DNA from: Treponemataceae bacterium
GTDB taxonomy: Bacteria > Spirochaetota > Spirochaetia > Treponematales > Rectinemataceae
Length of the DNA: 64,000 bases
Assembly (NCBI GenBank): GCA_963678065.2
Contig: CAXXVZ010000003.1
Span: 1,120,001-1,184,000, forward strand
Direction of reading: 5' to 3'
Shown: positions 20,493 through 33,080 of the stretch, in pieces
Position numbering within the stretch: the first letter of the stretch is position 1
How the letters are laid out: each line of letters starts with the position of its first letter
Translations under genes and position numbers: made by a program
Notes under the pieces: model-generated
The model's database searches: none
Seen by the model: the letters and a program-made list of their open reading frames with translations, nothing else
Told to the model about the DNA's origin: nothing

Positions 20493-29836
<9,344 letters not shown>

Positions 29837-29866
29837 TGGACTTGCCCCGACCGAATGGACAGGTAG

Positions 29867-30712
29867 TTAAGCCACTCTCGTCGCCTGTGATACCGGCGGT
29901 TTCATCGCATTGTGCGAATGCCGCCTGATCCGATTGTAGTAGACCTCGATGTACTCGAAAAGATCATGACGGACCCTTTCTCTGGAATATGTACCATTCA
30001 GAGTCTCTAATTCCCGTTTCAACGTTTTGAAAAAGGATTCCGCACAGGCATTATCCCAGCAATTGCCCTTTCGGCTCATGCTTTGAACAATTCCTTTCCT
30101 CTCCGCCAGTAGTGACCTCAATGCGGTGGAACAATACTGGACGCCCCGATCAGAGTGGAAGAGAAGTCCTGGCTTATACCCATATCGGATAACGGCCATG
30201 ACAAAAGCATCCACCACAATCTGGGAGGTCATGTCATCGCGGGTCGACCAGCCGACGACGTGACGGGTGCAGAGGTCGATAACGACACACAGATACAGCC
30301 AGCCCTCGGTTGTCGGGCAATACGTGATGTCAGAAACCCAGACGAGACCCGGCAGCGGTACGTCAAACTGTCGGTCAAGCAGGTTTTCCGCTACCGGTTC
30401 TCCATGATTCGAGTCTGTCGTGACAACGTATTTCTTCTTCGGCAGGCTTCCCAGATCATTCTCCCGCATGAGTCTGGCCACCCGTTTACGCGACACTCCA
30501 TAGCCTGTATCGCGCAATTCTTCGTGGATGCGCGGACTCCCGTATCGCCGGTGATGCTGTTTCTGGATGGCTTTGATCTTCTTGACCAATTCGGCATCCA
30601 GCAGTGCGTGACGGCTTGGTTTTCTCGATTTCCACGCATAGTACCCCGAAACGGAGACTTCCAGATATGTCGCCATCTTCCGTATCGACCACTGCCTCCG
30701 GTGGTCGACCAT
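29867..30712 (-). CDS. IS3-family transposase OrfB (DDE integrase core), disconnected from OrfA
   Basis: YGSPRI, WVSDITY, FHSDRGVQY, SMSRKGNCWDNACAESFF, YYNRIRRH. Confidence 0.93.
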   Translation of the reverse strand: MVDHRRQWSIRKMATYLEVSVSGYYAWKSRKPSRHALLDAELVKKIKAIQKQHHRRYGSPRIHEELRDTGYGVSRKRVARLMRENDLGSLPKKKYVVTTDSNHGEPVAENLLDRQFDVPLPGLVWVSDITYCPTTEGWLYLCVVIDLCTRHVVGWSTRDDMTSQIVVDAFVMAVIRYGYKPGLLFHSDRGVQYCSTALRSLLAERKGIVQSMSRKGNCWDNACAESFFKTLKRELETLNGTYSRERVRHDLFEYIEVYYNRIRRHSHNAMKPPVSQATRVA

Positions 30713-30787
30713 GAACTGGTAGACTCGGGCTAATTCCCCCTTCGGGGTACCGAGAAGATGGCGACGGCTTTTTTTCTATGTTTCCTG

Positions 30788-31891
30788 TCAACCTCCGGCT
30801 CCGAGAATTGCCAATCCTGACCTCTTGAGCTTGAGAGCAAATATCATGTCATCCGTGTACCGGTAGCGTTCCCCTCGTGTGAGCAAAATATAGACCATCT
30901 CGAGCAGCTTCCGGGCGGTCGCGACGACCGCGATAGAAGGCGCTTTCCCTCTGGAGATCATTGCCTCATAGTGGGACTTGAGCGGGTTTGAGCATTTACT
31001 GCGAATAAGTCCCCAGGCGCTCTGGACAAGCAGGCCCCGAAGATGCGCATTGCCTCGCTTCGTGATTGAGCCCTTGCGTTCAAGTTCTCCCGATTCGTGA
31101 AGCCGTGGCGACAACCCAACATAGTTGACCAACTGGGCTGGTCCGCTAAAGCGGCGCATGTCTCCCGCGTATGCCAGGATGGCCATCGTCGTCTTGATGC
31201 CAAAGCCAGGGAGCGACATGAGGATGTGCGCAGACTCCCCGCCCTTCATCACCGAAGCCCCGATCTCTTCGACCAACCCGGCGAGGATCTGCTCATATTC
31301 CGAGATCATGTGATGGAGGTTAATGGCCTCCGTCTTGCTGAAGCCGGCAAGTTCGGTTTCGATGAGCCGTTCCCTCGTGGCTGCCTTCTTAAGCTGGGCC
31401 TTGGTATGGTCAGGAATGCCACATCGGAGAAACACCGCATGAAGACGGTTTATAAGGCGAGTTCTATCCCTGCGAAAGCGGTCTTCATGGGACGAAAGTG
31501 CCCGACGATCCATCTCTTCATCCGAGGGCACTGGCACTGTCGGCAATTCGTCAGCATTGAACTTTTGCACAAGTCGCGCGAGCTTGAGCGCGTCCTCACG
31601 GTCCGACTTCTTGAGCGACTTATGGATCACCGCCAGGTCAGCCGCGTTCAGGACAAGGACCTGTATGTCGGGGTGCTCCATGAGTTCCTTCGCTATCTGG
31701 AATGAGGAGGTACCAGCTTCCATCGCGATGGTGTCGCCTGGTCGAACCCTTTCCGCAAGGCTGCGGCGGCCTCGAATATCGAGCTTGCCATTCCACCGCT
31801 GGATTGATTCGGTCTTTCCATCGATGGCAACCGCCTCGTAGGTCCTCTTCGAAAGGTCGATGCCAATAAAACGCCCTGTTTCCTTCCCCAT
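30788..31891 (-). CDS. IS110-family recombinase/transposase (DEDD RuvC plus Tnp20 domain)
   Basis: FIGIDLSK, MEAG, KSDREDA, LPGFG, YVGLSPRLHESG, GSITKRGNAHLR; GGAGG RBS before ATG 31891. Confidence 0.93.
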   Translation of the reverse strand: MGKETGRFIGIDLSKRTYEAVAIDGKTESIQRWNGKLDIRGRRSLAERVRPGDTIAMEAGTSSFQIAKELMEHPDIQVLVLNAADLAVIHKSLKKSDREDALKLARLVQKFNADELPTVPVPSDEEMDRRALSSHEDRFRRDRTRLINRLHAVFLRCGIPDHTKAQLKKAATRERLIETELAGFSKTEAINLHHMISEYEQILAGLVEEIGASVMKGGESAHILMSLPGFGIKTTMAILAYAGDMRRFSGPAQLVNYVGLSPRLHESGELERKGSITKRGNAHLRGLLVQSAWGLIRSKCSNPLKSHYEAMISRGKAPSIAVVATARKLLEMVYILLTRGERYRYTDDMIFALKLKRSGLAILGAGG

Positions 31892-31933
31892 GCGCAGCCT
31901 CCCGGGAAAAAGATCGGAGCCGGAAGTCTTTGA

Positions 31934-32120
31934 GCGATACAACGTGGTACTACATTCTTCTATTCGCAGTGGCGTTGCCGCAGCATCGTCCTGCACCCTG
32001 ATTTTCGACGACCGGCCTGGGCATAATCTTTTAGCCGGGGTCATACCCCACAAAGCGCGTACTGCCTGCCGCCGGCTCCCGGGTTCCGTCGAACCCAGCC
32101 TACCACGATCGTTGTACCGC
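31934..32120 (-). ncRNA. predicted IS110 bridge RNA
   Basis: Noncoding left end closed by GCGGTACAAC/GTTGTATCGC and GTGGTA/TACCAC pairing. Internal loops contain CTAAAA and GCTTT (target-like) and ATAGAA (donor-end-like). Confidence 0.6.
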
Positions 32121-32138
32121 CAGGGGAAACATATCATC

Positions 32139-32393
32139 TTTTAGTATTGCATTCGCCTCACGAAGTTCATCATTTTCCTTTTTCAGCCTGGTCATTTCCT
32201 GATCACGTGCATTCCCTTGTCCGGTAAATGCTTGTTTGTGTATTTCCTGACTCTCCCGTCGCCACCGGCACAATAGTCCAGGATCAATTCCCAAGTCTTT
32301 GGCCACGTTCCGGGCACTCCTGCCTGACCGTTCCAAGTGTTCAAGTGCTTCTTTCTTGAACTCTGCCGCGTACTTCCTTCTTTTGTCTTCCAT
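32139..32393 (-). pseudogene. IS3-family OrfA (HTH), interrupted near its end by IS110
   Basis: MEDKRRKYAAEFKKEA...VAKDLGI...LKKENDELREANAILK. The remainder (KAVAIFSVPRRGN*) lies at about 30730-30775. Confidence 0.88.
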
Positions 32394-32457
32394 ACCCTCT
32401 CCTCTCCTTATTCTCGGAGAGGCTTAACTCATGCTCCACTGGTTTGGGGTAGGTCCA

Positions 32458-33080
32458 CCCCACACGGGCGCGTGGATTGAAACATGTTAATCATCCGAAC
32501 GCGGGAGCGGAGGTAGGGTCGCGCCCCACACGGGCGCGTGGATTGAAACGTTGAAATTATGGACGATCTCAGTCCATACTCCCGTCGCGCCCCACACGGG
32601 CGCGTGGATTGAAACAAAGAGGACACAGGGAAGACCCATCCGGCATTTGTGTCGCGCCTCACGCGGGCGCGTGGATTGAAACCCCATCAGGTCAACGGCT
32701 TCGTGACTGCGCAGGTGGTCGCGCCCCACGCGGGCGCGTGGATTGAAACGGAGGAACATCATACCTGTCCATTGTTGCCGCTCATCGCGCCCCACGCGGG
32801 CGCGTGGATTGAAACCTAATAAGGTGATCTGTCCGCATCATCTTCCATGTCGCGCCCCACGCGGGCGCGTGGATTGAAACATTTCTCCTCTTTCTAAGTA
32901 CATAGGCGTCATTGGTCGCGCCCCTCGCGGGCGCGCGGATTGAAACCGCCTGTGTCCGACCTCGTGACTTCCGACCTCGCCGTCGCGCCCCTCGCGGGCG
33001 TGTGGATTGAAACGTCCTCGGAATAAAGATAGTCATACCGGCTGGAAGGTCGCGCCCCTCGCGGGCGCGTGGATTGAAAC
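32458..33080 (+). CRISPR. CRISPR array, trailer part (9 spacers, degenerating repeats)
   Basis: Resumes with the rest of the split repeat. Terminal repeats carry substitutions (e.g. GTCGCGCCCCTCGCGGG...), which supports plus orientation. Confidence 0.97.

Follow-up and report, generated by a model that had tools for sequence, protein, structure and literature searches.

The 64,000-nt stretch of Treponemataceae DNA analyzed here (the window) includes a CRISPR-Cas locus (12273-33080) that encodes Cas5, a weakly matching Csd1/Cas8c, Cas7, Cas3, Cas4, and Cas1. We label this locus type I-C from its Cas families and its repeat. Matches to the CRISPR repeat number 147, extending from 20493 to 33049, and at 29000-29300 the array bears the same spacer five times consecutively. 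An IS3-family insertion sequence (29837-32457, minus strand) is nested within one of the repeats, with eight matched repeats beyond it, and this host in turn contains a 1,365-bp element of the IS110 family (30775-32139, minus strand).

Imperfect 40-bp inverted repeats with TG...CA ends, a 3-bp duplication within the CRISPR repeat (29834-29836 and 32458-32460), and an orfA with a helix-turn-helix domain followed in -1 phase by an orfB with a DDE integrase domain place the host in the IS3 family (NF033516). The orfA (32100-32393, minus strand; PF01527) retains 84 native codons and then runs into a 13-codon tail contributed by the inserted element; orfB occupies 29867-30712 on the minus strand (NF033516, 327 bits). 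The insertion falls in a run of A's between the two genes. To its left, CTAAA (32140-32144, minus strand) encodes Leu84 of orfA and begins the codon after it; to its right, the window allele has six A's and then GCC (30766-30774, minus strand), compared with four A's in a clean allele described below. In the empty allele the run is A7, orfB lies in the -1 frame relative to orfA, and 65 nt separate codon 84 from the orfB ATG. Among 13 relatives of the host, CT-A7-GC is read in seven, an A6 run or an N in three, and no run in the remaining three. The frame relationship, the conservation of the run, and the rule that IS3-family elements produce OrfAB by programmed -1 frameshifting (PMC5771124) indicate that this run is likely a -1 frameshift (slippery) site.

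We compared the region with four sequencing runs from four studies, one of which may be the source of the assembly. In all four, the contigs crossing the element ends, among those listed, continue into the host IS3. No RNA data set carrying the stretch appeared among the runs listed, a result that is neutral as to expression. A groundwater run (X5) also contains the empty allele, CTAAAAAAAGCC: a contig joins 30771 to 32139, with four letters that fit either side, and reads CT-A7-GCC. The target that the preliminary description had reconstructed is thus a real allele, and its depth in X5 is 42.6, compared with 47.6 for the filled allele. The window and run X4 have seven T's at 30769-30775; X5, X7, and X10 have two fewer. 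The empty site and the clean filled allele together define the product as CTAAA|element|AAAAGCC, duplication-free and with the left end of the element at 32139, a boundary that agrees with ends common to its relatives; the window allele carries two extra A's. An A9 target with a two-base core or no overlap, suggested by the window allele, was rejected, given an A7 run in the empty allele and the absence of the extra A's from three runs.

The genome that carries the window (G000) has a second, identical copy of the IS110-family element (G000:C3:1907904-1909268) in a second composite (L010; G000:C3:1907583-1910215). The two composites are identical, share the +2A junction, and differ in their flanks. 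The shared junction suggests that one insertion was probably the origin of both, and the different flanks suggest that the composite was likely mobilized as a unit through the transposase of an intact copy. The two triplets that flank L010 differ from each other at a single position, the left one being identical to the duplication at the window's composite; the gene that L010 interrupts is presumably an IS630 transposase, as it reads like one. Both A7-GC hosts in this genome are filled, and three A9-GTAC copies of a second IS3 group are empty; neither an empty copy of the host IS3 nor a free CTAAAAAAAGC was found there. The exact sequence of the window element was encountered at a single site in a single host.

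The element encodes a 367-aa bridge-type recombinase (30788-31891, minus strand) with PF01548 and PF02371 domains, which scores 212 bits against NF033542 (cut-off 140). Residues D12, E58, D97, D100, and S267 show no variation across 12 aligned relatives, and S267 falls within the stretch aligned to the Tnp domain of IS621. Noncoding DNA extends for 248 nt upstream of the gene and 13 nt downstream. The left end (32125-32139, minus strand) consists of a 7-nt extension, AGATGAT, and a subterminal repeat, ATGTTTCC, and includes the -10 half TATGTT (32133-32128). The right end (30775-30791, minus strand) contains the -35 half TTGACA (30791-30786), the other repeat arm, GGAAACAT, and a 3-nt extension, AGA. 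In close relatives the arms co-vary (ATGATTTCC and GGAAATCAT); the repeat is 8 bp in the window element, 9 bp in close relatives, and shorter in far relatives. The suggestion that TTGACA could contribute to a promoter on circularization agrees with these ends, which, if joined, would read TTGACA-17-TATGTT and match 10 of 12 consensus bases. With the 7-nt left extension defined from the cut position, joining would give the same 17-nt spacer at 30 of the 31 loci that have both ends. A promoter scan of the linear sequence returned none, as expected if the promoter is split. The circle junction was found neither in the genome nor among the joints listed for the four runs, whose contigs lose rare forms.

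The upstream noncoding end is predicted to specify a bridge RNA (31906-32112, minus strand) with 5' hairpins, a target loop, and a multibranched donor region. This end had been described as foldable, a claim that holds for the covarying structure and fails for the single 250-nt sequence, which is not unusually stable (z = 0.40; 123 of 200 shuffles fold equally well). The single-sequence fold was dropped as structural evidence on this result, and covariation was used in its place. In an alignment of 29 relatives, 19 of 33 predicted pairs show compensatory changes, and the final structure comprises 37 pairs, 21 of them changed on both sides. Cells of this structure are paired in 93.7% of cases, whereas column shuffling gives 80.7% and sliding the partners gives 35-47%; the central hairpin had been added by hand before this test. 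One locus, L094, was excluded from the alignment for a long insertion (~110 nt, between its target and donor regions). The resulting model (R1), searched against 19 sources, matches the named Leptospira element ISLin1 (107 bits) and five other held-out loci. The bridge RNA has no match in Rfam, and a search with the model across 69 genomes of the family returned no member of the close clade introduced below.

The sequence motifs singled out in the preliminary description (the hairpin GGGGT-ATG-ACCCC, GCTTT, CTAAAA, ATAGAAG, and TTGACA) lie where it had placed them. The hairpin (32037-32049, minus strand) separates two target guides and corresponds to helix 4 of the model, which is 79% paired. 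The GGCA/TGCC stem said to enclose it is present in the fold of 31900-32110, where it closes an internal loop with two 12-nt strands; across the family, however, the conserved closing helix is formed by GGC and a more distal GCC on the 3' side, and GGCA/TGCC is a single-sequence alternative. Judged from sequence, this noncoding end, whose loops covary with both target and donor, qualifies as a putative IS110 bridge RNA, and the element appears to work like a bridge recombinase.

The 5' target guide, GTACGCGCTTT (32052-32062, minus strand), includes GCTTT (32056-32052), the reverse complement of target positions +2 to +6 (AAAGC). The 3' target guide, GCTAAAA (32029-32035, minus strand), includes CTAAAA (32034-32029), which is identical to target positions -5 to +1. 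Covariation of loops with targets, the check that had been proposed for these matches, bears out both assignments. Among 22 distinct guides at 31 loci, the 5' guide matches its own right flank at 124 of 154 positions (shuffle mean 72, maximum 96; data and shuffles had equal register freedom), and without the close clade the count is 106, versus 62 for shuffles. For the 3' guide, 94 of 110 positions equal target -5 to -1 (22 guides, 39 loci), where shuffles average 34.9 and reach at most 62. These and the donor counts below use one row per distinct guide, with kinship handled no further, and drop loci without a readable flank from each count. In the window, GCTTT and CTAAAA coincide exactly with the two target-guide positions of the alignment; when the 247-nt end is dinucleotide-shuffled 20,000 times, GCTTT followed 10-45 nt later by CTAAAA arises in 0.07% of cases, a post hoc figure. 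The right-hand match of the window guide covers five contiguous bases, compared with 7-10 typical of relatives; with a one-base bulge it reaches eight, which is suggestive only. Several far relatives (L009, L027, and L104) fit their flanks poorly.

Two further loops appear to read the donor. ATCA (31999-32002, minus strand) is the reverse complement of left-end positions +4 to +7 (TGAT), and this position matches at 51 of 64 bases, versus 30.8 when shuffled (16 distinct pairs). ATAGAAG (31957-31963, minus strand) equals the predicted circle junction CATAGA|AG. Its likeness to the element end, which had been noticed at the outset as ATAGAA, is borne out to the extent that the loop becomes ATAGGAG where the end is CATAGG; this is a single evolutionary change, and the base concerned also covaries inside the RNA. 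Since G(A/G)AG of this loop pairs within helix 6, its case is weaker than that of the other three guides. In addition, GAT following the 3' target guide (32026-32028, minus strand) equals left-end bases +2 to +4 and may be handshake-like; bases at these three positions agree in 23 of 30 cases, versus 14.7 when shuffled (10 distinct pairs).

Other RNAs of this family were encountered. L161 (G000:C3:877249-877467), a third one in the same genome, has another guide that fits its own left flank and precedes a recombinase truncated after ~83 residues; it is near-identical to L011 and L099, whose guides fit a GCAGCAAGCTGC-type palindrome. L167 (G011:C152), which lies outside the alignment, is a miniature element consisting of the RNA and, 62 nt on, a right end, with no recombinase, and its guide matches its own right flank over 9 nt. 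L170 resembles L167, although no end was located for it.

Searches with the protein in 61 and 401 related genomes returned nothing more than 45% identical except one 65% fragment, a species-genome scan with the single recombinase protein gave seven loci, all distant, and the viral contigs searched contained no relatives. A metagenome scan yielded 80 loci, 19 of them in a close clade that we delimited by ends and RNA; relatives at 72-87% were also identified (P0002 and P0012). Close relatives (63-70%) keep the scaffold and the left guide, (C/T)TAAAA, and their 5' guide reads TACTTTTT(T). They share the cut after CTAAA, placed in the A9-GTAC run of a second host group, also of the IS3 family, whose orfB is 31% identical to that of the window host. 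Empty relatives of this group read T-A9-GTAC at 18 of 30 loci from 10 genomes. The guides of close relatives match A9-GTAC over 8-10 nt and the window guide matches it over 3.

Ten of the 16 left flanks in the close clade end in GAGTGGCTAAA of the second IS3 group, with five non-IS and one mixed; six of nine right flanks run into the orfB of that group, and three are non-IS. Many of these loci are near duplicates, and the distinct sites amount to about six in IS3 and about five elsewhere (of 11). The non-IS flanks are A-rich and still guide-like, which indicates a guide-driven preference that is not exclusive. Comparison of homologous flanks, as had been recommended, recovered the same cut in an IS3 run, but the run there is A9-GTAC and non-IS sites occur too. 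The elements at L042 and L014 are 99% identical and their hosts 92% identical, indicating separate insertions. The number of A's at the right junction differs by one or two between alleles, as expected of a homopolymer. In a tree whose far rows are long-branched, the A9-targeting elements form their own clade beside the window element, a topology compatible with re-aiming in either direction; P0002, P0008, P0010-P0013, and P0015 fall with the window element. L157 (G000:C3:1737830-1738970), a 30%-identical IS110-family gene, stands back to back with an empty A9-GTAC IS3 copy; it ends in a similar TTGAC...TAGGAG and does not match model R1.

Taken together, these data describe an IS110-family element that interrupts the A7 run separating orfA from orfB in an IS3 host, and its predicted bridge RNA likely guides the recombinase to this conserved, likely slippery site. 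The proposal that the element is programmed to the IS3 slippery site is thus supported by the guides, the empty target, and the relatives, and qualified by the non-IS3 sites, about five of 11, of those relatives. That one insertion sequence parasitizes another is likewise supported, and was published already for ISEc21 (PMC11187229).

We envision that the element ends would join as a circle, CATAGA|AGATGAT, in which TTGACA and TATGTT, 17 nt apart, would drive both RNA and recombinase. The covariation suggests that to the right of the cut GCTTT would pair with the top strand, that to its left CTAAAA would pair with the bottom strand, and that ATCA and ATAGAA would read the circle junction. The alleles show that entry occurs at CTAAA|AAAAGCC, without duplication and along the direction of host transcription. 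Donor and target have a single base in common, the A at +1 (in 39 of 41 right flanks); at +2 the target has A and the donor G. This suggests single-strand exchange completed by replication; single-strand insertion with replication has been reported for CazIS110-1 (10.1101/2025.10.25.684509). The insertion would abolish the host OrfAB fusion and spare orfA, orfB, and both host ends. Such a site would be conserved, multi-copy, and dispensable to the cell, and a host transcript would enter the bridge RNA; read-through suffices for excision of IS621 (PMC13626964), and in ISSau2 both OrfA and OrfB damp transposition (PMC5771124). More tentatively, we raise the possibility of a bridge lineage specialized on IS3 frameshift signals and re-aimed between host groups through one guide. 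Such an element might disarm the host fusion, leave OrfA and OrfB to damp intact copies, obtain its first RNA from the host transcript, and ride the host ends.

A simpler account, which we regard as unlikely, is that the RNA guides the element to A-rich sequence generally, IS3 runs being merely the commonest perfect matches, with no adaptation of the lineage. The non-IS A-rich matches at about five of the 11 distinct close-relative sites fit such a general preference, as does the wider lineage, which targets many unrelated short sequences, so that guides evidently change freely. Against it, two guides each fit the post-run bases of a different IS3 group (GC versus GTAC) at the same CTAAA cut, and the exact target 11-mer has no further instance in 5.27 Mb.

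It is more doubtful still that the element inserted once, long ago, and has since been an immobile passenger of IS3 with a partly decayed guide. The G000 assembly contains what a passenger would leave, two composites alike down to the +2A junction and no empty host, and the short right-hand match would be consistent with decay; yet the element retains an intact reading frame, its catalytic residues, both ends, and the two promoter halves, X5 contains filled and empty hosts together, and the guide suits its own host better than it suits the host of the relatives. Chance, with protein or DNA shape choosing the site, can practically be dismissed: although the matches are A/T-rich and short (5-6 nt) and shuffled sequences fold as well as the native one, the same loop positions follow the flanks over 22 distinct guides, beyond every shuffle. 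Guidance by the predicted RNA to the IS3 frameshift run therefore remains our preferred reading.

Within the portions of the literature considered, the mechanism class and the residence of IS110 elements within IS3 are already known; what is new here is the slippery site as a target. Our literature search, confined to openly accessible papers and with some hits judged by their listing and the opening of the abstract, found no IS110 element directed to the frameshift run of an IS3. In the readable parts of the supplements to PMC11187229 and PMC11208160, term searches likewise found no such target, and two 11-mer hits lay off the cut of another target set. The window element and its relatives offer a natural before-and-after pair for guide reprogramming, in which scaffold, cut, and left guide are constant and the right guide differs, and through them one can test whether bridge elements evolve toward signals of other mobile elements that are conserved and present in many copies. 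They also provide, for the ISLin1 lineage with its upstream RNA and IS1111-type ends and guide order, a map of all four guides and the handshake-like bases; no guide map of this lineage was found in the parts of the bridge-RNA literature examined.

In its choice of host, the closest precedent is ISEc21, which targets IS3-family elements at a catalytic codon (Siddiquee et al. 2024, PMC11187229). The window element resembles ISEc21 and ISMch6 in belonging to the IS110 family, in aiming an upstream noncoding RNA at a conserved IS3-family stretch, and in having a junction promoter, natural re-aiming among relatives, and no target duplication (PMC11187229). It differs from ISEc21 in that the top-strand match comes first rather than last, and in having subterminal repeats (PMC11187229). 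The nearest named element is ISLin1, whose protein is 35% identical over 98% of its length (E 2e-64). ISLin1 shares the upstream RNA and the TTGAC...CATAG end; in contrast, its guides are different and the flank at the single copy read is not an IS3 slippery site. The source data of PMC11187229 assign it to IS110; the columns shown there include no close relative, and its identity to the roughly 200 IS110-labelled elements displayed is 16-25%.

IS621 has the same DEDD and Tnp recombinase architecture (E 4.7e-10), although identity is low and the Tnp domain alone scores by itself. Both elements have two target guides around a hairpin, a short donor guide, and handshake-like bases (PMC11208160, PMC11208158), as well as an RNA within the left end and a junction promoter (Durrant et al. 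2024, PMC11208160; Hiraizumi et al. 2024, PMC11208158). As far as the published descriptions consulted allow comparison, IS621 has a two-base core at both ends, whereas the window element has one shared base, a crossover site inverted relative to gene and RNA, and a donor region predicted to be multibranched. Read on the opposite strand, we infer, the four guides fall in IS621 order, with donor CT beside the cut.

Subgroup features are mixed. The long noncoding end upstream of the gene is shared with the IS110 group, in which the bottom-strand guide lies 5' of the top-strand guide, the reverse of the order here (PMC11187229, PMC11208160). Top-strand guide 5' of bottom-strand guide is instead the IS1111 arrangement, and subterminal repeats 7 nt and 3 nt from the ends without duplication are found in ISEc11, IS4321, and ISPa11 of that group (PMC11187229). 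The IS1111 repeat is usually 11-13 bp (range 7-17), compared with 8 bp here (PMC11187229, PMC11208160), and the RNA of IS1111 elements lies downstream of the gene rather than upstream, with a few published exceptions (PMC11187229). By these comparisons, the element belongs to the broad IS110 family and appears to fit neither the IS110 nor the IS1111 subgroup cleanly.
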